Below are positions 1-10,888 of a stretch of DNA of 10,888 nucleotides, piece after piece. The translations under genes and the position numbers were made by a program. The stretch's first letter is position 1; the number at the start of each line of letters is the position of its first letter. The DNA is from a virus. Taxonomy: Duplodnaviria > Heunggongvirae > Uroviricota > Caudoviricetes. The stretch covers positions 1 through 10,888 of IMG/VR virus record IMGVR_UViG_2529293142_000034; one strand, written 5' to 3'. The notes beneath the pieces were generated by a model that worked only from the letters and a program-made list of their open reading frames with translations, searched no databases and was not told the origin of the DNA.

Positions 1-1263
1 ATGAAGCTCACAGCCAGACAGGTCGAGACCGCAAAGCCAAAAGAAAAAACCTACAAAATGGCCGACGGCGGCGGTTTGTATCTCGAGATTTCGGCTAAGG
101 GCTCTAAATACTGGCGCATGAAATACAGACGCCCCTCAGACAAAAAAGAGGATCGCCTCGCTTTTGGTGTTTGGCCTACTGTGACGCTAGCTCAGGCAAG
201 AGTAAAGCGCGATGAGGCTAAAAAGCTGCTAGTGCAGGGCATTGACCCAAAAGCCGAACAGAAAGAAGTTCAGGCCGAGAATTCGGGGGCATATACATTC
301 GAAACCATTGCTCGTGAATGGCACGCCAGTAACAAGCGCTGGAGTGAAGACCATCGATCGCGCGTTCTTCGCTATCTTGAGCTTTATATATTCCCTCACA
401 TTGGTTCGTCCGACATTCGTCAGCTCAAGACTAGCCACCTATTAGCCCCGATTAAAAAAGTTGATGCAAGTGGTAAGCATGACGTCGCGCAGCGTCTTCA
501 GCAGCGTGTCACGGCTATCATGCGTTATGCAGTACAGAACGATTACATCGACTCAAATCCAGCCAGTGATATGGCTGGTGCTCTATCTACAACCAAGGTG
601 CGACATTACCCCGCTTTACCCTCTAGCCGATTCCCTGAGTTTCTTGCACGTCTTGCTGCATATCGTGGCCGTGTAATGACACGGATCGCGGTTGAGCTTT
701 CCTTACTAACTTTTGTGCGTTCCAGTGAGTTGCGTTTCGCGCGTTGGGATGAATTCGACTTCGATAAATCTCTATGGCGCATACCTGCAAAACGAAAAGA
801 AATTAAGGGTGTGCGTTATTCGTATCGTGGTATGAAGATGAAAGAGGAGCATATCGTTCCGCTGAGTCGTCAGGCGATGAATTTGTTAGACCAGTTAAAG
901 CAGATTAGTGGTGATAAAGAGCTGCTTTTCCCGGGGGATCATGACGCAACTAAGGTTATGAGTGAAAACACAGTGAATAGCGCATTGCGTGCGATGGGAT
1001 ATGACACAAAAACCGAAGTCTGCGGGCATGGGTTTAGGACGATGGCACGTGGTGCGCTGGGTGAGTCAGGGTTATGGAGTGATGATGCTATAGAACGCCA
1101 ACTGAGCCATTCAGAACGTAATAATGTTCGGGCTGCCTACATTCACACTTCAGAGCATTTAGATGAGCGTAGGCTGATGGTGCAGTGGTGGGCTGATTAT
1201 TTAGATATAAATAGAATGCAATATGTGACACCGTATGACTTCGCAAAGGAAGAAAATCTGTAG
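1..1263 (+). CDS. int: Tyrosine recombinase, P4-type integrase (420 aa)
   Basis: Intact 420-aa ORF starting at ATG position 1. N-terminal region (LYLEISAKGSKYWRMKYR...) is typical of P4-family integrases; C-terminal catalytic region has HGFRTMARG (His-x-x-Arg) and a downstream Tyr (VRAAYIHTSEH). Confidence 0.93.
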   Translation: MKLTARQVETAKPKEKTYKMADGGGLYLEISAKGSKYWRMKYRRPSDKKEDRLAFGVWPTVTLAQARVKRDEAKKLLVQGIDPKAEQKEVQAENSGAYTFETIAREWHASNKRWSEDHRSRVLRYLELYIFPHIGSSDIRQLKTSHLLAPIKKVDASGKHDVAQRLQQRVTAIMRYAVQNDYIDSNPASDMAGALSTTKVRHYPALPSSRFPEFLARLAAYRGRVMTRIAVELSLLTFVRSSELRFARWDEFDFDKSLWRIPAKRKEIKGVRYSYRGMKMKEEHIVPLSRQAMNLLDQLKQISGDKELLFPGDHDATKVMSENTVNSALRAMGYDTKTEVCGHGFRTMARGALGESGLWSDDAIERQLSHSERNNVRAAYIHTSEHLDERRLMVQWWADYLDINRMQYVTPYDFAKEENL

Positions 1264-1302
1264 AAATTATATGCTAACAATATATAAAACTCTTATAGTA
1301 AT

Positions 1303-1332
1303 AAACCATCCATTATTTTTAATGGATGGTTT
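1303..1332. terminator. Perfect 12-bp inverted repeat (AAACCATCCATT / AATGGATGGTTT) with a 6-nt loop, between the convergent int and cargo genes; putative bidirectional terminator
   Basis: Palindrome read directly at 1303-1314 and 1321-1332, between the int stop (1263) and the cargo gene stop (1362-1364). The stem is AT-rich and there is no clean U-tract, so terminator function is uncertain. Confidence 0.4.
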
Positions 1333-1361
1333 AAGATGAATTACTAGTTTTATGATTGAAT

Positions 1362-3657
1362 TTAAATTACTTCGACATTTTGATCATCATTAGCACTTTG
1401 CTGAACGTCGACATTAATGTCATCATCATTCGGCAGAGCCTTATAATATTCTCCCATCATCATTTTATAATGTGCAGCATTATCGCTGTATTCAAATATT
1501 TTCTGGAATATATTGAGATTTTTACTAACCGAGTTTTGGTCTAGAGCAATGTAAAGATCGTCATTTGAATGATGTGAACCGTCATTAATCCAAGATATCA
1601 ATGAATTAAATGCTATTTTTTCATCACCATCAAAATGTTTTTCGAGTTTCCATACATTAAATCCACCTAAAATTTTAAAGTAATTTTCAAGAATTCTTCT
1701 CATTGTGTTTTGTACTGTTGTGCAATTAATATCAGGGCGCCTTATCTCACTCCATAGTAAATCATATGAAGTTTTAATTGGATTGCATGCATGGCTTTCA
1801 ATGAACGATAATTTATCCTTTTTCCTAATGACCCAAAATGTTTCATCAGGACGAGCAGTATCTAAATTTCTATTCATATCGAAAGTTAACTCTTTATGAA
1901 AATAAATATTGTGAGTTAGGAAAAAGACCTGTTTTATACGGCCATTATTGTCTCTAATGTCTTTTATAAGTTTTTTCATTAATGAGCTAACTATAAACAG
2001 AATATCACTATCTAAACTTGATATAGGATCATCAAAGACAACTACTCGATCGTTCATTACACCAGATGTTGAATTACTTCCTTTGATGAGATTATAGAAA
2101 TATAGGAATGTGATAAAAGTTTTCTCACCCTCACTGAGTGTGCTTAGGGCATTATCACCATTTTCACGTACGATTCTATAGCTAAACGAATCGGATGTCG
2201 GTGCAAGGCTAAAATTTTTGAAGCCAAATGATAAAAGTATCTTATTTATAGCAGTGATTGTTGGCGTGACACTGGTTCTTTTAGATTCCTCGCTGGATAT
2301 ATTTTCAATGATATCATCTAATCTGACTTTGTCTTTTTCTAAACCCTTAATTAACCCTTCCTTAGCTCTATTTAACTGTTCCTTATCAGTATTATATTTA
2401 TTTATTTTATCAGCCAGTTCAACTTTAACTATATAATGCCATATTTCTTTTGTTAGTTTTTCTCTTTCCATGCTCCTGTTTTTGTATAGTTCATTATTTT
2501 CAAAAACTTGATTGTTAGCTGCAAGAATGATGTCTAATAATTCTTTGCCAGGCTCTAGAAGTCCTGTCATAGCGACAGGTGTACTTAATTCAGCCAATTT
2601 TCTTTTTGCTTCATCTATATTCCTTGATAATATTGATAGAATTAATTTGGATTTTGTGTTAAACAAATCCAAATCAAGGAAGGCATAGTTCCCTTCATTT
2701 ATTTTCGCAACATATTCATCAAATAAACGATACTCATGAGTATAATTTTTTAGTAATACATTAATGCTTTCTGTTTTTTCTAAATATTTTGTGTCAAAGT
2801 AACTTTCTAAATCCGATTTCAAACTACTGGGCGTATTTTGTTGGCAAAATGGACATTTGGTTTCAAGGTTATCATAGTACTTTATCCCTTCTTTAACCCA
2901 GTCACTGTTATCTAGTTGCCTTATGATTTCGGCAACGCTTGCATCTTCTTTTCCAAGAATTTTCTCTTTCCATATTTCATCGTCAACTATTTTTTTATGT
3001 TGCTAAAATTTGGTAAGGGAATTATATTGTGAACTGTTAGCGAGTCTGAGTAAACACTACCAGCCTTCGATATTAAGTATGGTAACTGGTGTAAATCTAC
3101 TTCTTTTGAATATAGCTCCTCTAATACCTTTGATTTGAATTTTTCCTGGCTGCTTCTTAAACCTTCAAATGCTTTATAGAAGTAATCATCATGTTTTTCT
3201 TTTGATTCCAGCAATCATTTTTGAAATCCAATTCAATTTTTTCAAGTTTTTGATAGATACCTAAATTTGCATTATCATTGTTATTTAAATTTCTTTTCTT
3301 GGAATCTATTGAGCTTTGCTCTTTATCCCTTTGTTGTATCAATTTGTCTATGTTATCTGTGAGCTCTTTTGTTTCTTCACCTAAAGTAAAAATACCTTTA
3401 ATACTATCTCCAGAAAAATTATTTACAACAAAATCCCTGTTGTAGACATAAGGAGTTAATTGATTGTTGTTTTTCCATTTAATCTGGCAAGTTGGAAAGC
3501 CTAAAGCATTATGAATTATTTTGCTAATTGTAGTTTTTCCAGCACCATTTGAGCCATATATGTAATTGATTTTCATTAGAGGCATCATATATTGAACGTC
3601 ATTTCCATATGAACCGGCTTGAGAAACGCTTATAGACTCTATCATTATCTTTTTCAT
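1362..3657 (-). CDS. Cargo gene: RloC/PrrC-like ABC-type ATPase with central CPFC motif and C-terminal putative nuclease domain (about 765 aa when joined); interrupted in this sequence by two homopolymer frameshifts
   Basis: Three adjacent minus-strand ORFs (3157-3657, 2987-3214, 1362-2822) join into one frame if one base is added at the T5 run 3194-3198 and at the T7 run 2990-2996. Walker A YGSNGAGKTT is at 3535-3558; reading the 1362-2822 frame upstream of its TTG start gives ...KYYDNLETKCPFCQQNTPSS (CPFC at 2844-2855). Signature-like LSEGEK, Walker B/D-loop VVVFDDPISSLD (about 2025-2045) and H-loop FFLTHN follow. Family assignment (AAA_13 / RloC-PrrC-like) is from motif recall, not a search. 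Confidence 0.7.
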
Positions 3658-3736
3658 CCTTTAGCTTTGTGTGAGGGGCGTGTCAGTCACGGATTACTAT
3701 TGCAGAATATCCATTTGTTTCAAGATATGTTTTTAT

Positions 3737-3780
3737 ACAGTGGTAAATAAACACAGTGGTAAATAAACACAGTGGTAATC
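3737..3780. repeat. Tandem direct repeat, 16-bp unit ACAGTGGTAAATAAAC x about 2.7, lying 80-125 bp upstream of the cargo gene start
   Basis: Exact copies at 3737-3752 and 3753-3768, partial third copy at 3769-3780 (ACAGTGGTAATC); a related CAAGTGGTTTAGTG follows near 3791. Confidence 0.8.
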
Positions 3781-3880
3781 ACAAAATATTCAAGTGGTTT
3801 AGTGTCATAGAAAGTGAGCATCTACGCAAGAATGTACTAACTCTGAGTTTACAAAATTAAATAATTAATATGCGCGCGCA

Positions 3881-3899
3881 GTGCTTTCCCCGCCTCGCC
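3881..3899 (-). other. cos site: P2/P4-type 19-nt cohesive-end sequence GGCGAGGCGGGGAAAGCAC
   Basis: Reverse complement of 3881-3899 is exactly GGCGAGGCGGGGAAAGCAC, followed on that strand by CTGCGCGCG..., matching my recollection of the P2/P4 genome left end. It sits between the cargo locus and psu, as expected for an integrated P4. Confidence 0.8.
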
Positions 3900-3999
3900 C
3901 GCCCGCTTTGCGGGGCGGTTTTAATGCAGTTGCACTGACACGCTCAGACCGCGCCGGGAATGGCGCGGTTTGCAGAAAATGAGGCAGGGAAACGCATGC

Positions 4000-4033
4000 A
4001 AAGCCATGCACCTTATCGATGCATGGCTTTTTT
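4000..4033. terminator. Intrinsic terminator-like hairpin (10-bp stem AAAGCCATGC / GCATGGCTTT, 11-nt loop) with a 3-prime T-tract on the plus strand and an A-tract on the other side; probably bidirectional, just downstream of psu
   Basis: Stem pairs 4000-4009 with 4021-4030, followed by TTT at 4031-4033 (T-run 4028-4033). Lies about 30 bp beyond the corrected psu stop (4064-4066). Confidence 0.5.
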
Positions 4034-4063
4034 CAGTAAAAACGGGCGGATTTTCGGGGAATT

Positions 4064-4635
4064 TTACACTGACTGACGTGATGCCAGTTGCGCACTTTTA
4101 CGCGAAAAAATCATGTTCTGCGCAGGGGTGAATTTTTCACGGCTGTCATCCACCGAAGCCGCGTCAGGCCTGAATCCGATGGTCGTTAAAATGTCGCTAT
4201 CCTGTGCGGAATAATTAATTTTTCCCCCTTCGCAAGCCAGGACAGAAGGGCTTCACGCAGGGCATCTGTGGCACGCTGTATGGCACAGTTTCGGGCAATG
4301 GCCGTCAGCTCACTGTATCCCATCAGCTCCGGTGCCAGTGCCGCCGCCAGTGCTGTGCCGTGCTGCTGCATAAAATCATTCAGCCGGTCGCGGATGCTGA
4401 TGTGCTGAACGGCTTCATGCGAACGAATATAACGACCGGCGGCCTGATTCACCTGCCATTTTCTGACTTCGATAATATTGCGTAATTCGTCCAGGCGACT
4501 GACGTTTCTGCCTTCCCCGGACAGAAGCCGCAGATATTCCTGTTCGGCCGCAGCCAGCTCATTTTTGCGTTGCAGCCATGCTGCTTTGTTATTCTGACAG
4601 GTGTCAAAGGCCTGCTGTAAGGCTGTGCTTTCCAT
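4064..4635 (-). CDS. psu: Psu polarity-suppression / capsid-decoration protein (190 aa after a one-base correction); C-terminus out of frame here because of a homopolymer indel
   Basis: ORF 4186-4635 (149 aa) ends ...LSWLAKGEKLIIPHRIATF*. The adjacent frame reads KINYSAQDSDILTTIGFRPDAASVDDSREKFTPAQNMIFSRKSAQLASRQSV* to a stop at 4064-4066. The join needs one extra T in the T5 run 4219-4223 and gives 139+51 = 190 aa, the length of P4 Psu as I recall it. Confidence 0.85.
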
Positions 4636-4707
4636 CGTTATCTCTTTCTCATCATGCTGAAGAATAAAATACGGTGTGCGGCGACGGCCGGTGTTAACCG
4701 GCAGCCC

Positions 4708-5208
4708 TCATTCCAGACGCAGCGAATATGATTGTGTTTTTAAGCGTACTGGCGGCAGTTCCTGTTTTTCATGCAGGCTTTCTGCCAGTTCGTCCGGCGT
4801 GACCGGGCGGACAATGAAACGGTTGATGGTCTGAAGCGTTTTAAACACCAGACCACAGCCCGGATCCGTGCACACATAAAAACGCTCGGTGACTTCCTGA
4901 GACAGACGCCTCGATGTTCTTGACAGTGCAAGGCCTTTACATCTCCGACAACAATATCCGGTAACAAGCATTCTTTTCGGGCGTTTCATACTGCCGGAGG
5001 CTGACGTCAGTGAATCGCGGTATCTCTGTTTGCCTGAAATGTATTCCATTCCTGAATCTTTACTGTCAGAGAAAAAGCTTTCACTCGCTTCAAATGTCGC
5101 AGAGCAATAAATATTCCGGCACTGTGCAATCATTATCTTGGTGCCATCGTCCATGAAATGTGCGCGGCGGGTGTGAGCAACATGTCCACACGACGGGCAG
5201 TAAATCAT
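4708..5208 (-). CDS. delta: Delta late-gene transcription activator with two tandem Ogr-type zinc-finger domains (166 aa)
   Basis: Intact 166-aa ORF with two C-x2-C-x22-C-x4-C modules (CPSCGHVAHTRRAHFMDDGTKIMIAQCRNIYC and CCRRCKGLALSRTSRRLSQEVTERFYVCTDPGC). Its ATG (5208-5206) overlaps the sid stop as ATGA. Confidence 0.9.
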   Translation of the reverse strand: MIYCPSCGHVAHTRRAHFMDDGTKIMIAQCRNIYCSATFEASESFFSDSKDSGMEYISGKQRYRDSLTSASGSMKRPKRMLVTGYCCRRCKGLALSRTSRRLSQEVTERFYVCTDPGCGLVFKTLQTINRFIVRPVTPDELAESLHEKQELPPVRLKTQSYSLRLE

Positions 5209-5938
5209 GACAGCAGTCCTCTGGCCTTAAGCTCTGCTCCCTGCTGGTCTATTTTGTCCTGCCACACCTTGCGCTGTGCCGGTGTGCCTGCCACCTCATA
5301 ATCCATGTGCGGGAGTGTTGCCGCTGACAGTCCGGTCAGCCGGAGAACCGGCTCACCGGTGAGGCTGATTTGCATCTGTTTTATTTTCTGTTCCAGCGAT
5401 GATTTCACCTGCTGCATGACAGCCTTTTCCGGTGCGACGTAGCCCTGATGGCCGGTGGCGTTGGCGAGCGGATTTTCCTGTACCAGAATGCTCAGATGCA
5501 TTGCCCGGACAAGCGCCTCACAGGTTTCATTCAGGGCGTGTTCCAGCTCATGCTCTGCATACAGACTCAGCAGGTGATGATGTGCCTTCCGGTAGGCGGT
5601 GGCCGTGCTGTCACACGCCCCTTTCAGGCGTTCACGTTCAAAATTCAGCACCACGGCCAGATTGTCATATTCCTGTACCAGCTCCCGGCGTGCCACGCGC
5701 TCAATGTGGCGCTGTTTCAGCTCGTCGCTCAGGACACCACCGGCTGCACGAAAGGCTGTGCGCCAGTCATCAGCGTCATTTCCGTCGGCCTGCGCCAGCG
5801 CATTTTTTCCTGCTCTGCCCGTTCAATGGCCTTGACGGTCTCATCCATCAGTCGGGCGTTCTCAAGGTGGGCGGCTCTGGCCTTTTCCAGTTGTGCCAGT
5901 GCGGGTTGCAGATATTCAGGGATGGTGTTGTCAGACAT
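5205..5938 (-). CDS. sid: Sid capsid size-determination (external scaffold) protein (244 aa after a one-base correction); split in this sequence by a homopolymer indel
   Basis: ORFs 5729-5956 and 5205-5696 join if one T is added to the T6 run 5803-5808: ...AIERAEQEK + NALAQADGNDADDWRTAFRAAGGVLSDELKQRHIER + VARRELV.... Starting from ATG 5938 (GAGGAG Shine-Dalgarno 7 nt upstream) gives 45+36+163 = 244 aa, the P4 Sid length as I recall it. Confidence 0.85.
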
Positions 5939-5972
5939 TTTCCGGCTCCTCGTCACTTCAGGTTAAGAAAAT

Positions 5973-6028
5973 TGTGACGTACACCGGACAACAACACGAC
6001 GCATTGCAGATGTGCCAGTCCTGACACA
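5973..6028 (-). promoter_or_regulatory. Candidate late promoter for sid-delta-psu with two TGT-N12-ACA activator sites of the Ogr/Delta type, centres 38 bp apart
   Basis: TGT-N12-ACA read at 5973-5990 and 6011-6028. If the distal site is centred near -55, the start of transcription falls about 5964 and the proximal site near -18, leaving a roughly 25-nt leader before sid ATG 5938. The -55/-18 arrangement is recalled for P4 late promoters. Confidence 0.55.
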
Positions 6029-6106
6029 GGAGACTCATCCTCAGACCGGCAAGCCAGGAAAAGGTCGCAGGAAAAACCGGCTTACTGTTTGTTTTTTTAT
6101 ATTTTA

Positions 6107-6220
6107 CTGTTCACCTCTGTTCACCATAAGAAAAAAGATAAGTAATACAGTAAGTTAAAGGGTGAACAATCGCAGTAATGACTGTTCACCGTCTGTTCAC
6201 CACTGTTCACCCGTTCATGG
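6107..6220. repeat. Phased 9-mer repeats CTGTTCACC (five direct copies, one inverted, one degenerate) in the divergent control region between sid and alpA
   Basis: Direct copies at 6107-6115, 6117-6125, 6182-6190, 6193-6201 and 6203-6211 (10-11 bp spacing within each cluster); inverted copy GGTGAACAA at 6161-6169; degenerate CGTTCATGG at 6212-6220. Existence is certain; function is inferred. Confidence 0.8.
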
Positions 6221-6295
6221 ACTTTTTGTGCTGTTTATTACTTTTTATTTTTATTAATTAACTGAAATAAATAAGAAAAACAATTTGTATTTCAC

Positions 6296-6301
6296 TATAA
6301 T
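6296..6301 (+). promoter_or_regulatory. Consensus -10 hexamer TATAAT facing alpA; candidate early promoter element
   Basis: TATAAT at 6296-6301 in an AT-rich stretch; no convincing -35 at 17 bp spacing, so this is weak. Confidence 0.25.
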
Positions 6302-6490
6302 TTTTTCCAGCTCCTTCCAGAGCGTTTTTAAAAGCTATCTGGCGCTGATGTGCAAAAAACACACAGCCATTGTAAGGCTGCCGGAACAAATCCCCCCTGT
6401 TGCGTCTGCCAAAAATATTCACAAAATAAAGCGCTACCCCGAAGCCGGACGGACTTATCCGGTGCTGTATGGACATTACGAGGTAGCCCG

Positions 6491-6760
6491 ATGCTAAGCC
6501 TGTTTTTTCTCCCCGTCTCCTGCCCCTGTGACGCCACTGATGCCGCTGCCGGACATCACGCAGGTAGCGTTTTTTTACGCTGCCGGAAGTGATGCACCTG
6601 TGCGGCCTGTCACGCTCGACCATCTATGAACTCATCCGTAAGGGGGAATTTCCGCCGCAGGTGAGTCTTGGCGGTAAAAAATGTGGCCTGGCTGCACTCT
6701 GAAATCACCGCATGGATGGCCGGGCGCATTGCCGGACGCAAACGGGGGTACGACGCATGA
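6491..6760 (+). CDS. alpA: AlpA-family (Vis/excisionase-like) helix-turn-helix regulator; reading frame broken twice at homopolymers in this sequence
   Basis: Core at 6580-6702 reads [34 protein letters not shown]...; removing one A from the A6 run 6676-6681 continues as ...[29 protein letters not shown] (stop 6758-6760), a close fit to the AlpA-family pattern. No in-frame start precedes the core unless one T is added to the T7 run 6570-6576, which joins it to ATG 6491 (GAGG 7 nt upstream). N-terminal boundary is uncertain. Confidence 0.65.
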
Positions 6761-7158
6761 TGATGCCCGCTCTGCAAAAAGTCCCTTTTTCTGGCTTGCC
6801 TTTTTCCGGCATTTGCGGATATAGTTTTTCTGCTGCCGCAAAATCGGCAGCCGGGCGTGGAAACCCGAGCAATTCACAGGCGGCATATGACGCGCCATGC
6901 GTCTTTTTTTGTGTCGCAATCAACGCCACAGAGCGCCAGATTATGGTGTGGTGTGTGGTCAGTCGTGCAGATGGCATTCCGTGCATCCTGCCCGCGTCCG
7001 CTCATTATGCCGCAGAGTCAATGGTAGCTCAGGCGGGGCAGCCTCCGGGCTGGCCGGTATCCTGTGAAGCCGGTATTTCCACCCCCGTCTGGGCTATCGC
7101 CATCGAGCGTGGAAACTCCGGCGATAGCGTTATTTGCTATTCACAGGAGGCTGCCATC

Positions 7159-7356
7159 ATGGCTACAACCCTCACCCCCTCACACCCTGAATTTGTCTTT
7201 GTGTTTGCGGCTGTCCGTCGCGCAGACCGTCATCCCCGTATCTGCATGCTTCGCACCGTCGCCGGTGATGAACGCAGTGCCCGCCGTTCCCTTGTCCGTG
7301 ACTATGTGCTCTCCCTTGCTGCCCGTCTGCCGGTGGTGGAGGTGTCCCGTGCGTAA
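7159..7356 (+). CDS. Small early protein (65 aa), possibly an Icd-like cell-division inhibitor
   Basis: ATG 7159 preceded by AGGAGG at 7145-7150 (8-nt spacer); sequence [65 protein letters not shown]. The stop overlaps the next gene start. The Icd-like label is from weak recall of prophage annotations. The same frame is open upstream to 6757, so the true start could lie further upstream. Confidence 0.4.
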
Positions 7357-7636
7357 TAAAAAAGCCCCTCAGACCGTCTCAGCGCGTCATGACGCCCGTG
7401 AACACCTCAGCATTGAGGCTTACCATAAGCTCAACCGCGCCAGCGCCGTATCCCAGTTTGTTGGGGGTGATTTGATTCACCGTGAACTCTCCGGCCTGCA
7501 TCAGCTCTACATTCCGCATATTTTCAGCTACCTGAATGAAGATATTGATTTTGTGCTGAATGAGCTGAAAGCCAAAGGCCTGTGCCGCGATTTTCTCGCC
7601 CAGCAGAAAGACCGGGGAGACAGGACGCATGTTTGA
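7349..7636 (+). CDS. Small early protein (95 aa), possibly the epsilon (derepression) homologue
   Basis: GTG 7349 with GGAGG at 7338-7342; no in-frame ATG exists downstream, so the GTG start is required. It overlaps the upstream stop (GTGCGTAA) and the downstream start (ATGTTTGA). The epsilon assignment is by position and size only. Confidence 0.5.
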
Positions 7637-8084
7637 TTTTCCCCAGCCCGGTGAGATTTACCGTTCTGCCGGTTTTCCCGATGTGGCCGTGGTCGGCATT
7701 CTGGAAGACGGTATTCCGTGGGAAATGCCGTACCGCTGCCCGGACATTGTCTGGAACCCGTACCGCCGTAAATTCAGTATCCTTGTGCGTATCCTCGCTG
7801 ACGGGCGCACCACAGACATCCCGCTGGGGCGTTTTCTGCGGGAATTTACCTGTGACCGTCCTGACCTGTTTAAACGCAGCCCCGTAAACCGGCATGCGGT
7901 ACTGAAAGAAATGGCCGGAGACCCGGAATTACAGAAATGGCGGGAGAAATATCTGGATATTTACCCGCAGGCCCCTGTTCCGGTCAGCCGGGCGGCACCG
8001 GTGGCGCGGGAATGGCGGGAAATTCCCCGCACGGAGCCTGACCCGGAAATCACCCCGGATAACAGTTACCGCAATTATCTGTAA
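7629..8084 (+). CDS. Conserved early-operon protein, 151 aa (orf151-like)
   Basis: Intact ORF whose ATG overlaps the stop of the preceding gene; its size and position before alpha match the P4 left-operon layout as I recall it. Function unknown. Confidence 0.65.
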   Translation: MFDFPQPGEIYRSAGFPDVAVVGILEDGIPWEMPYRCPDIVWNPYRRKFSILVRILADGRTTDIPLGRFLREFTCDRPDLFKRSPVNRHAVLKEMAGDPELQKWREKYLDIYPQAPVPVSRAAPVAREWREIPRTEPDPEITPDNSYRNYL

Positions 8085-8219
8085 TTAAAAAACGACCCCC
8101 GAAAAATTAAATGTGCGTATTCGCGCAGGGATACGCACGTCTTCAGGAGACGCAGATATGCCTTATCAGTTAATGCAACCGGCACGGAATGCAGTCATCT
8201 GTCACAGGGAGGAAAACAA

Positions 8220-8540
8220 ATGAAAACACCCTTACCGCCCGTCTTACGCGCTGCCCTTTACCGTCGCGCTGTCGCCTGTGCCTGGCTGACCGTGTGCGAA
8301 CGTCAGCACCGCTACCCGCATCTCACCCTTGAGTCACTGGAGGCGGCCATCGCCGCTGAGCTGGAAGGCTTTTATCTGCGCCAGCACGGTGAGGAAAAAG
8401 GGCGTCAGATAGCCTGTGCCCTGCTGGAAGATTTAATGGAATCCGGCCCCCTGAAGGCCGCGCCGTCGCTGTCCTTTCTCGGGCTGGTTGTGATGGATGA
8501 ACTCTGTGCCCGTCACATAAAAGCGCCGGTACTGCACTGA
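8220..8540 (+). CDS. Conserved early-operon protein, 106 aa (orf106-like)
   Basis: Intact ORF with GGGAGG upstream of ATG 8220; it ends 14 bp before the alpha start. Function unknown. Confidence 0.65.
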
Positions 8541-8554
8541 AGGAGAACAACACC

Positions 8555-10888
8555 ATGAAAATGAACGTAACCGCCACCGTCAGCCATGCACTCGGCCACT
8601 GGCCGCGTATCCTCCCGGCGCTGGGGATTCAGGTGCTGAAGAACCGTCATCAGCCCTGTCCGGTCTGTGGCGGGAGTGACCGCTTCCGTTTTGATGACAG
8701 GGAGGGGCGCGGCACCTGGTACTGCAATCAGTGTGGTGCCGGTGACGGCCTGAAACTGGTTGAAAAGGTGTTTGGTGTTTCCCCGTCCGATGCGGCCGCA
8801 AAGGTGGCTGCCGTGACCGGCAGCCTGCCCCCGGCTGACCCGGCAGTGACGGCTGCCGCCGGTGCTGAAACAGACGCTGCCCGGAAGAACGCCGCCGCAC
8901 TGGCACAAACCCTGATGGCGAAAACCCGTCCCGGAACCGGTAACGCCTACCTGACCCGCAAGGGCTTTCCCGGCCGGGAATGCCGGATGCTGACCGGCAC
9001 ACACAGAGCCGGTGGCGTGAGCTGGCGTGCCGGTGACCTTGTGGTGCCACTGTATGACGACAGCGGCGAACTGGTTAACCTTCAGTTAATCAGTGCTGAC
9101 GGCCGTAAGCGCACCCTGAAAGGCGGACAGGTCAGGGGCACCTGTCACACCCTTGAAGGACAGAATCAGGCCGGAAAACGTCTGTGGATAGCGGAGGGAT
9201 ACGCGACCGCACTTACCGTGCATCACCTGACCGGTGAAACGGTGATGGTGGCGCTTTCTTCCGTGAATCTCCTTTCTCTGGCCAGCCTTGCCCGGCAGAA
9301 GCATCCGGCCTGTCAGATTGTCCTTGCTGCTGACCGTGACCTCAGCGGTGACGGCCAGAAAAAAGCCGCCGCAGCCGCAGATGCGTGTGAAGGTGTTGTT
9401 GCCCTGCCGCCGGTCTTCGGTGACTGGAATGATGCCTTCACGCAGTACGGCGGGGAAGCCACCCGTAAGGCCATTTATGATGCCATCCGGCCACCGGCTG
9501 AAAGCCCGTTCGACACCATGAGCGAAGCGGAGTTTTCCGCCATGAGTACCAGCGAAAAGGCCATGCGTATCTATGAGCATTACGGCGAGGCGCTCGCGGT
9601 CGATGCCAACGGCCAGCTTCTGTCCCGCTATGAAAATGGTGTCTGGAAGGTGCTGCCGCCACAGGACTTTGCCCGGGATGTGGCCGGGCTGTTTCAGCGT
9701 CTGCGCGCGCCGTTCTCCTCCGGGAAGGTGGCCTCCGTGGTGGACACCCTGAAGCTGATTATTCCGCAGCAGGAAGCCCCCTCCCGCCGCCTGATTGGCT
9801 TTCGTAACGGCGTGCTCGACACGCAGAACGGCACGTTCCACCCGCACAGTCCGTCACACTGGATGCGCACCCTGTGTGATGTGGATTTCACCCCGCCAGT
9901 GGAAGGGGAAACGCTGGAAACCCACGCCCCCGCGTTCTGGCGCTGGCTTGACCGTGCCGCCGGTGGCCGTGCGGAAAAACGCGACGTGATTCTGGCCGCA
10001 CTGTTTATGGTGCTGGCAAACCGCTACGACTGGCAGCTCTTTCTGGAGGTGACCGGTCCCGGCGGCAGCGGCAAAAGTATCATGGCCGAAATAGCCACCC
10101 TGCTGGCCGGGGAGGATAACGCCACATCGGCCACCATTGAGACGCTGGAATCCCCGCGTGAACGTGCCGCGTTAACTGGCTTCTCACTGATACGCCTGCC
10201 GGACCAGGAAAAATGGAGCGGCGACGGTGCCGGACTCAAGGCCATCACCGGCGGCGATGCGGTGTCCGTTGACCCGAAATACCGGGATGCGTACTCCACG
10301 CACATCCCGGCGGTGATTCTGGCCGTGAACAATAACCCGATGCGCTTCACCGACCGCAGCGGCGGCGTGTCACGCCGGCGGGTGATTATTCACTTCCCTG
10401 AACAGATAGCCCCGCAGGAGCGCGACCCGCAGCTTAAGGACAAAATCACCCGCGAGCTGGCGGTCATCGTGCGTCACCTGATGCAGAAATTCAGCGACCC
10501 GATGCTCGCCCGGTCACTGCTTCAGTCCCAGCAAAACTCAGACGAGGCGCTGAACATCAAACGGGATGCCGACCCGACGTTTGATTTTATCGGCTATCTG
10601 GAAACCCTGCCGCAGACCAGCGGCATGTATATGGGGAACGCCAGTATCATCCCGCGCAATTACCGTAAATACCTCTATCACGCCTATCTGGCCTACATGG
10701 AGGCAAACGGCTACCGGAACGTACTCAGTCTGAAAATGTTCGGGCTGGGGCTGCCGGTGATGCTGAAGGAATACGGACTGAATTACGAGAAGCGCCATAC
10801 CAAACAGGGGATACAGACCAACCTGACGCTGAAAGAGGAAAGCTACGGCGACTGGCTGCCAAAATGTGACGACCCTGCAACAACCTGA
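8555..10888 (+). CDS. alpha: Alpha protein: P4-type primase/helicase (zinc finger + Toprim primase + D5-like NTPase), 777 aa, complete
   Basis: AGGAG 9 nt upstream of ATG 8555. N-terminal zinc-binding motif CPVCGGSDRFRFDD...CNQCG, Toprim-like acidic region (EGYATAL ... LAADRDLSGDG) and Walker A GPGGSGKS at 10055-10078. The 777-aa length equals that of P4 alpha as I recall it. Confidence 0.93.
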   Translation: MKMNVTATVSHALGHWPRILPALGIQVLKNRHQPCPVCGGSDRFRFDDREGRGTWYCNQCGAGDGLKLVEKVFGVSPSDAAAKVAAVTGSLPPADPAVTAAAGAETDAARKNAAALAQTLMAKTRPGTGNAYLTRKGFPGRECRMLTGTHRAGGVSWRAGDLVVPLYDDSGELVNLQLISADGRKRTLKGGQVRGTCHTLEGQNQAGKRLWIAEGYATALTVHHLTGETVMVALSSVNLLSLASLARQKHPACQIVLAADRDLSGDGQKKAAAAADACEGVVALPPVFGDWNDAFTQYGGEATRKAIYDAIRPPAESPFDTMSEAEFSAMSTSEKAMRIYEHYGEALAVDANGQLLSRYENGVWKVLPPQDFARDVAGLFQRLRAPFSSGKVASVVDTLKLIIPQQEAPSRRLIGFRNGVLDTQNGTFHPHSPSHWMRTLCDVDFTPPVEGETLETHAPAFWRWLDRAAGGRAEKRDVILAALFMVLANRYDWQLFLEVTGPGGSGKSIMAEIATLLAGEDNATSATIETLESPRERAALTGFSLIRLPDQEKWSGDGAGLKAITGGDAVSVDPKYRDAYSTHIPAVILAVNNNPMRFTDRSGGVSRRRVIIHFPEQIAPQERDPQLKDKITRELAVIVRHLMQKFSDPMLARSLLQSQQNSDEALNIKRDADPTFDFIGYLETLPQTSGMYMGNASIIPRNYRKYLYHAYLAYMEANGYRNVLSLKMFGLGLPVMLKEYGLNYEKRHTKQGIQTNLTLKEESYGDWLPKCDDPATT

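Follow-up and report, generated by a model that had tools for sequence, protein, structure and literature searches.

A P4-like satellite carries an rloC-like gene whose product probably ends in an anticodon-nuclease domain

The anticodon nucleases RloC, which excises the wobble nucleotide, and PrrC carry nuclease domains that have been placed in the HEPN superfamily (Anantharaman et al. 2013, PMC3710099), and an association with restriction-modification (R-M) genes has been reported for both of them (PMC3710099). RloC has, and PrrC lacks, a coiled-coil/zinc-hook insert through which the RloC ATPase comes to resemble Rad50 (PMC2610378, PMC3458546). The published signature of the RloC nuclease is Arg-X3-Glu-X36-52-His, often with a Ser before the His, and in Geobacillus kaustophilus RloC replacement of Arg692, Glu696 or His737 by Ala abolishes both tRNA cleavage and toxicity (PMC2610378). 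Here we compare with these systems an rloC-like gene found on the minus strand of a P4-like satellite (IMG/VR record IMGVR_UViG_2529293142_000034, positions 1 to 10,888; this whole stretch of 10,888 nucleotides is the window analysed). Our main conclusion concerns the last 181 residues of the encoded protein, downstream of its ATPase H-loop: this tail is probably the C-terminal anticodon-nuclease (ACNase) domain of a RloC-family protein, a family assignment that is set by signature, profiles and database names.

A first-pass annotation, made from the sequence, had described about 180 residues after the H-loop, with an Arg-x3-Glu in MRRILENYF and an S-H-H 38 residues further on. Translation from FFLTHN (1908-1925) to the stop codon (1362-1364) gives 181 residues, and both the coordinates and the spacing of the two elements were right. 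Residue numbers used below are those of the intact protein and equal the numbering of the 486-codon open reading frame (ORF) in the window plus 275 (Arg650, Glu654, Ser691, His692 and His693). The relevant features of the tail are the following.

1365-1907, minus strand: the 181-residue tail, full-length residues 581-761, matched on its own by both Pfam AAA_13 and PDC-S06
1677-1703, minus strand: MRRILENYF, with the Arg codon at 1698-1700 and the Glu codon at 1686-1688
1686-1700, minus strand: R650-R651-I-L-E654, the candidate catalytic Arg and Glu, counterparts of R320/E324 in PrrC and R692/E696 in G. kaustophilus RloC
1569-1577, minus strand: S-H-H, with Ser at 1575-1577 and the two His at 1572-1574 and 1569-1571
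1572-1595, minus strand: S685-W-I-N688-D-G-S691-H692, the candidate catalytic His loop, in which N688/S691/H692 correspond to N352/S355/H356 of PrrC
1470-1472, minus strand: H726, within the motif AHYKMMMG of the last helix, invariant in 152 of 152 sequences

The first His of S-H-H stands 38 positions after Glu654, giving R-x3-E-x37-H with Ser691 just before His692. Taken bare, such a pattern is not beyond chance: among 20,000 shuffles of the 181-residue tail, 12% contained R-x3-E-x36-52-H, and 1% did so when a Ser was required before the His. These frequencies would suit the view that the pattern is accidental and without function, yet that view is extremely improbable and effectively refuted by conservation, as these very residues vary little or not at all among 152 diverse relatives and align with those that mutagenesis found essential in RloC and PrrC. 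It is the conservation seen in the alignments, of the Arg, the Glu, the Ser and the first His, that makes the motif significant and leads us to regard it as real, the pattern alone being weak. Lack of conservation among homologues had been named beforehand as an outcome that could refute the annotation; what we found is that none of 121 full-length homologues (40-100% identity) departs from Arg650, Glu654, Ser691 and His692, and that these residues are invariant or nearly so at greater depth. When 1.84 billion cluster representatives were searched with a profile of these C-terminal 181 residues, 1,285 proteins reached E <= 1e-3, 454 of them E <= 1e-30, and the best 150 representatives of 50%-identity clusters, with two other sequences, formed a set of 152. 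Arg650, His692, Asn647, Tyr628, Trp632 and His726 are present in all 152; Glu654 is found in 148 (the remainder having Asp), Ser691 in 151 and Arg651 in 147, while the position of Asn688 holds Asn or His in 148. The S-H-H of the annotation thus stands as far as its first His is concerned, whereas the second, His693, is variable and mostly replaced by Phe, Ser, Asn or Tyr.

A further residue deserves mention in its own right. His726 lies outside the published triad and was absent from the first-pass annotation; it is aligned with a near-invariant His close to the C-terminus of PrrC.

The assignment to the RloC family draws on several kinds of evidence. The tail reads R650-x3-E654-x37-S691-H692 and so fits the published RloC signature exactly. 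The match of Pfam AAA_13 to the 486-residue ORF has E 1e-101, and that to the 181 residues of the tail by themselves has E 9e-33, over model positions 572-713 of 713; for the PADLOC model PDC-S06 the corresponding values are E 3e-168 and E 2e-62. The PADLOC PrrC model gives a weak match (E 2e-9) with an envelope running from the signature motif through the C-domain. In a survey of Bacillus cereus genomes, the same proteins were called 'PDC-S06' by PADLOC and 'RloC' by DefenseFinder (PMC11811056, supplementary file 6). Homologues that are 41-44% identical over their full length bear the JGI name 'wobble nucleotide-excising tRNase', as does, in both JGI and NCBI, a distant enterobacterial plasmid clade with 27% identity in the C-domain. 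The C-domain profile of that clade aligns with the tail profile at an hhalign probability of 99.9% (E 1e-33, 160 columns). A tblastn search against plasmids returned 'AAA family ATPase' names only and was the source of the distant relatives that were aligned later. No NCBIfam model matched the C-terminal part, and a PDB sequence search with the full protein gave no match at E <= 1.

For the comparison with PrrC, the tRNA-Lys anticodon nuclease of the E. coli prr/EcoprrI locus, we used a query that we take to be the E. coli protein. It has the right length, places 35 of the 35 residues named in PMC3025547 at the right positions and is 93% identical to its best database match, relatives of which are called 'anticodon nuclease' by NCBI. 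Full-length and C-domain profiles were compared by hhalign with this E. coli PrrC alone and with a 30-sequence PrrC profile, and significance was reached only for the ATPase region from the signature to the H-loop (E 7e-6). A multiple alignment of PrrC and the tails of four RloC-like proteins, which is descriptive and carries no statistical test, nevertheless sets in common columns the Thr-His of the H-loop, an S-Y pair, R-x3-E, I-N-x2-S-H and the C-terminal His. In this descriptive alignment the PrrC triad Arg320-Glu324-His356 is collinear with that of the window protein via intermediates, in agreement with the PrrC-like Arg-x3-Glu...His arrangement that had been annotated. Judged from sequence, the protein does resemble PrrC in the order of its motifs and in family. 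The same alignment disposes of one candidate: His619 had been considered as the counterpart of PrrC His295 on the strength of an ungapped extension and was rejected, because PrrC S293-Y294 falls on the invariant S627-Y628. The lysine-anticodon-recognising PrrC peptide KYGDSNKSFSY aligns by its final S-Y alone, no search having been aimed at this peptide or at the PrrC box.

The architecture upstream of and within the tail can be read from conserved motifs and from AlphaFold2 models.

3529-3555, minus strand: Walker A, GSNGAGKTT, from translation and Pfam, conserved
2844-2855, minus strand: CPFC, residues 265-268, a CxxC zinc-hook motif midway along the helical insert, from the homologue alignment
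2121-2138, minus strand: ABC signature LSEGEK, from translation and alignment
2010-2033, minus strand: Walker B and D-loop, DDPISSLD, aligned with FIDDPVSSLD of PrrC
1908-1925, minus strand: H-loop (switch), FFLTHN, in which T578, H579 and N580 are invariant
1791-1844, minus strand: beta-hairpin, residues 602-619, between the ATPase H-loop and the helical domain, aligned with the PrrC hairpin 'CYMLESFEDGTFALTEK'
1443-1790, minus strand: all-alpha core of the putative ACNase domain, residues 620-735, with five to six helices (AlphaFold2)

The intact protein was modelled with a mean predicted local distance difference test (pLDDT) score of 81, and an insert of about 400 residues, largely helical, separates Walker A from the signature motif. 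Within this insert, C265, P266, F267 and C268 are invariant in 74 aligned homologues, and CPFC is also present in three distant RloC-like proteins; we read it as a zinc-hook motif, with zinc binding predicted from the sequence. The best match of the full-length model among solved structures is Rad50 (E 2e-8), followed by SMC heads and by the defence ATPases PtuA, AriA and LmuB, which score at E < 1e-3. The C-domain modelled separately reaches a pLDDT of 78 and a predicted template-modelling score (pTM) of 0.71, with helices at 627-636, 642-660, 665-669, 675-693, 704-720 and 724-734. Arg650 and Glu654 lie on the second of these, and His692 ends the fourth.

On the other side of the balance, a number of observations weigh against an active anticodon nuclease. 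The C-domain does not align significantly with PrrC in hhalign (E 0.14-0.15), and the addition of 150 cluster representatives was of no help. The enterobacterial intermediate clade also falls short of significance against PrrC (E 0.066), yet does so in exactly the expected register, with MRNILEYYF on LRNLYEKTA and YRAINRHSH on SRIINFTSH of PrrC. In the full-length model the loop that follows His692 has low confidence. Two frameshifts interrupt the gene upstream of the nuclease domain in the window. Finally, the position of PrrC Arg349 is occupied here by Ser685, with Ser in 124 of the 152 sequences and Arg in four.

This last point bears directly on the proposed chemistry. Arg349 and Asn352 of PrrC are also essential (R-x2-N-x3-H356) and have been reported as conserved in RloC, and the PrrC mutants R349A, R349K and R349Q are all inactive (PMC3025547). 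The window protein does have the counterpart of Asn352, namely Asn688, and carries Arg651 (codon 1695-1697, minus strand; that of Ser685 is at 1593-1595) at the position of another essential PrrC residue, Asn321. A sister clade, likewise named 'wobble nucleotide-excising tRNase', does have R-x2-N-x2-S-H. In a small sample, the residue after the first Arg and the residue seven before the His co-vary between clades.

This clade (120 of 152) and a Rhizosphaericola plasmid protein: Arg after the first Arg, Ser seven before the His
E. coli PrrC and an Enterobacter plasmid protein: Asn after the first Arg, Arg seven before the His
A Rahnella plasmid protein: Gln after the first Arg, Arg seven before the His

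One way to explain the swap is that the domain, while homologous to the RloC nuclease, has lost its second catalytic Arg and is no longer a nuclease, and would instead serve the ATPase in regulation, oligomerisation or nucleic-acid binding. The prevalence of Ser over Arg at this position would fit such a loss, as would the inactivity of all three PrrC Arg349 mutants (PMC3025547), the lack of a literal Rx4-6H HEPN motif and the existence of non-catalytic HEPN domains (PMC3710099). We nevertheless consider it quite unlikely: across a broad span of lineages, Arg650, Glu654, His692, His726 and Asn647 show little or no variation, which would be unexpected in a decayed site, and Arg651, present in 147 of 152, co-varies with the loss of the other Arg, which suggests relocation. 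Since the remaining residues of the site are invariant, we favour relocation over partial loss, and the sequences suggest that the second catalytic arginine may have moved from His-7 to a place beside the first Arg. More tentatively, and with some doubt, the protein might represent a large RloC clade, numbering over 450 cluster representatives at E <= 1e-30, with a rearranged site, Arg-Arg...Ser-x6-His; as the sole cargo in hotspots of both P4 satellites and P2 phages, it would be a stand-alone anti-phage RloC and respond to a trigger unlike the DNA-break response of the RloC enzymes of G. kaustophilus and Acinetobacter baylyi ADP1. If this were true, the rearranged site could alter cleavage chemistry or tRNA specificity.

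Membership in the HEPN superfamily was also considered. The Rx4-6H motif is not present in the window protein, where W-I-N-D-G-S precedes His692 and no Arg lies four to six residues before it, while PrrC has R-x6-H. No HEPN model of Pfam matched, a Foldseek search of the PDB for the HEPN fold returned nothing at E <= 0.001, and no PrrC or RloC structure was apparent among the sequence and Foldseek matches in the PDB. As the 'APECO1_4465' ABC-HEPN family has been described (Anantharaman et al. 2013), strain APEC O1 was looked for and is not among the genomes with this gene or with its P2 paralogue. The remote-homology comparison with HEPN, PrrC and RloC was significant for the RloC-named clade (E 1e-33) and fell short of significance for the PrrC C-domain, and no HEPN match came out of the Pfam and Foldseek searches. 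Taken together, the PrrC/RloC-like nuclease motif that had been annotated, and that would turn the ATPase into a toxin, is supported for RloC by signature, architecture and family matches, while direct likeness of the C-domain to PrrC is not significant.

A separate matter is whether the gene is intact. In the window it is divided into three ORFs, of 166, 75 and 486 residues, by two single-nucleotide deletions. The C-terminal piece, a minus-strand ORF of 486 codons at 1362-2822, is itself intact according to the ORF list and three-frame translation; the N-terminal piece lies in a different frame (ORF 3157-3657), and the third frame holds the short middle piece.

1362-3645, minus strand: the whole rloC-like gene, 761 residues when intact, from three-frame translation, alignment to the intact copy, Pfam and PADLOC
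2989-2996, minus strand: frameshift 1, a coding-strand A-run one base shorter than in the intact copy (T7 versus T8 on the plus strand)
3189-3193, minus strand: frameshift 2, a coding-strand A-run one base shorter than in the intact copy (T5 versus T6 on the plus strand)

The intact allele comes from E. coli BEN5202, in which a single coding sequence of 761 residues (WP_001615855.1) is annotated as 'AAA family ATPase'. If both frameshifts were real, the gene would be a pseudogene, the full-length protein would not be made, and the C-domain would exist at best in a 486-residue fragment without Walker A. The division into ORFs of 166, 75 and 486 residues relative to the intact allele is what such decay would produce, and this gene does get inactivated, as an IS3 element disrupts a third E. 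coli copy. We regard decay as unlikely here, albeit less so than loss of the nuclease function discussed above. Over the well-aligned first 5.8 kb, all single-nucleotide differences from BEN5202 are deletions within homopolymer runs (window positions 2989, 3193, 4218, 4665 and 5802; T8->T7, T6->T5, T6->T5, A5->A4 and T7->T6), a pattern typical of sequencing error, and they frameshift psu and sid as well, both of them core satellite genes. Otherwise, just two substitutions separate the two sequences between the start and stop of the rloC-like gene. Because every single-nucleotide difference sits in a homopolymer run and psu and sid are also broken, the two frameshifts are probably sequencing errors in the source assembly and not signs of decay.

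The disrupted third copy is that of E. coli RM10740, where an IS3-family element cuts the gene into two 'AAA family ATPase' fragments (positions 2722-3929 of the extracted locus).

With regard to genomic context, the window is a P4-like satellite carrying an integrase, the rloC-like gene, psu, delta, sid and the alpha primase, and in related genomes the satellite adjoins tRNA-Leu.

1-1263, plus strand: int, P4-type tyrosine integrase, one edge of the hotspot, from the annotation of a near-identical locus, next to tRNA-Leu
4186-4760, minus strand: psu, polarity suppression protein, the other edge of the hotspot, with single-nucleotide homopolymer deletions in the window
3696-3778, minus strand: upstream region of the rloC-like gene, with a sigma-70-like promoter match at 3723-3696 preceded by a tandem repeat

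The interval between int and psu in P4-like satellites is a known hotspot for anti-phage systems (Rousset et al. 2022, PMC9122126), and the rloC-like gene sits in it. Two papers on P4/P2 hotspots, including PMC9122126, make no mention of an RloC-like gene. The gene is rare, being carried by three of 5,426 complete E. coli genomes; 23 of the 5,426 have a paralogue whose C-terminal third is 70% identical to it in nucleotide sequence. In E. coli D7 this paralogue encodes 778 residues and lies in a P2-like prophage, between a portal gene and a KAP-family NTPase gene (7868-10204 of the extracted locus); a helper phage type and a satellite therefore carry the same defence gene family.

Beyond E. coli, a scan of one genome per species found 512 relatives over many phyla, and the neighbours were read at the 80 loci kept. 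Type I or III R-M genes lie beside the RloC-like gene at 16 of the 80 loci and RhuM at five. A co-oriented DUF2130 gene is found within 4 kb at 13 of the 80 (12 of its 14 copies upstream, two downstream), of which three only also have R-M genes nearby, and DUF2130 may be an unrecognised partner in a subclade. No neighbour is universal among the 80 loci, which fits a single-gene system with occasional 'restriction-linked' placement, the origin of the RloC name.

The non-coding sequence around the gene has some features of its own. A perfect 16-bp tandem repeat (ACAGTGGTAAATAAAC, 2.6 copies, 3737-3778) lies just upstream of the promoter-like site of the rloC-like gene, and BEN5202 has one unit more, so that copy number differs between strains. 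In the spacer between psu and the rloC-like gene, at 3899-3918, a GC-rich hairpin is followed by a T-run on the plus strand (CCGCCCGCTTTGCGGGGCGG TTTTAATGCA); this resembles a terminator, both genes being encoded on the other strand. A perfect 12-bp inverted repeat with a 6-nucleotide loop (AAACCATCCATT / AATGGATGGTTT, 1295-1330) is located directly 3' of the stop codon of the rloC-like gene, before the end of int. It is likely a terminator, and a consensus terminator scan made no call there because the stem is AT-rich.

How might such a protein work? The sequence motifs, their conservation, the family membership, the predicted architecture and the genomic position are observed for this protein; its catalytic activity, tRNA target, activating signal and anti-phage effect we infer from RloC of G. 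kaustophilus and A. baylyi and from PrrC. The protein would consist of three parts: a Rad50-like ABC ATPase head, a helical insert within the head that bears the CPFC zinc hook, and a helical domain of about 115 residues attached via the beta-hairpin. Arg650, Glu654 and His692 would form the catalytic site of the helical domain, probably assisted by Asn647, Arg651, Asn688, Ser691 and His726. In the proposed scheme, the nuclease would be held inactive by the ATPase/zinc-hook module; once this module binds ATP and DNA ends, or some other cue linked to infection, the released nuclease would cut the tRNA anticodon loop around the wobble nucleotide by metal-independent transesterification. Cleavage of tRNA would stop translation and abort the infection. 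As cargo carried in the int-psu defence hotspot of its P4-like satellite, the gene likely serves to exclude competing phages.

Should this reading hold, the cargo of the P4-like satellite defence slot would be a RloC-type tRNA-cutting toxin as opposed to the 'AAA family ATPase' of the public label, with three or four residues pinpointed as targets for mutation. RloC has been studied biochemically, and the RloC papers cited here report no test against phage; as of 2013, no phage was known for A. baylyi, the natural host of RloC. The standard coliphage panels would be directly applicable to an E. coli allele that P4 and P2 elements carry. In turn, the Arg/Ser exchange with respect to PrrC raises a small question, open to test, about the working of these nucleases.

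Set against known systems, the protein shares the fold of its N-terminal two-thirds with Rad50/SbcC, retron PtuA, AriA and LmuB, none of which has the C-terminal Arg/Glu/His domain, their effectors being separate proteins or of other nuclease folds. With the HEPN superfamily RNases it has in common a small all-alpha domain, a conserved His at a helix end, a conserved Arg/Glu pair and a link to defence, and metal-independent transesterification would be the expected chemistry. PrrC belongs to the same Pfam family, AAA_13, and has the same order of landmarks after the H-loop, namely the hairpin, S-Y, R-x3-E, I-N-x2-S-H and the C-terminal His. However, PrrC has 396 residues and is without the coiled-coil/zinc-hook insert, compared with 761 residues and an insert of about 400 here; its gene lies inside a type Ic hsd operon, whereas the gene in the window is flanked by int and psu and the window is without hsd genes; PrrC is regulated by EcoprrI, Stp, GTP and dTTP; and its Arg349 and Asn321 face Ser685 and Arg651.

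It is with RloC (COG4694) that the correspondence is closest. The ABC ATPase motifs Walker A, signature, Walker B/D-loop and H-loop are present and conserved, and the helical insert holds a CxxC (C265/C268 here, C291 in G. kaustophilus RloC, C314 in A. baylyi RloC). By published residue numbers, the triad R650/E654/H692 corresponds to R692/E696/H737 of G. kaustophilus RloC. The gene is mostly stand-alone, with occasional R-M linkage in relatives. The differences are a Ser at the PrrC Arg349 position (reported as conserved in RloC), Arg-Arg in place of Arg-Asn in the first motif, and the setting of the gene, as cargo in the hotspot of a P4 satellite, its paralogue being in a P2 prophage. Because it is twice the length of PrrC, has the insert and lies outside any hsd operon, the protein is closer to RloC than to PrrC, and its membership is in RloC, not PrrC. 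Overall, it adds an ordinary member, one with a minor variation in its active site, to a known family of phage-defence proteins, and it leaves the general picture of anticodon-nuclease defence unchanged.

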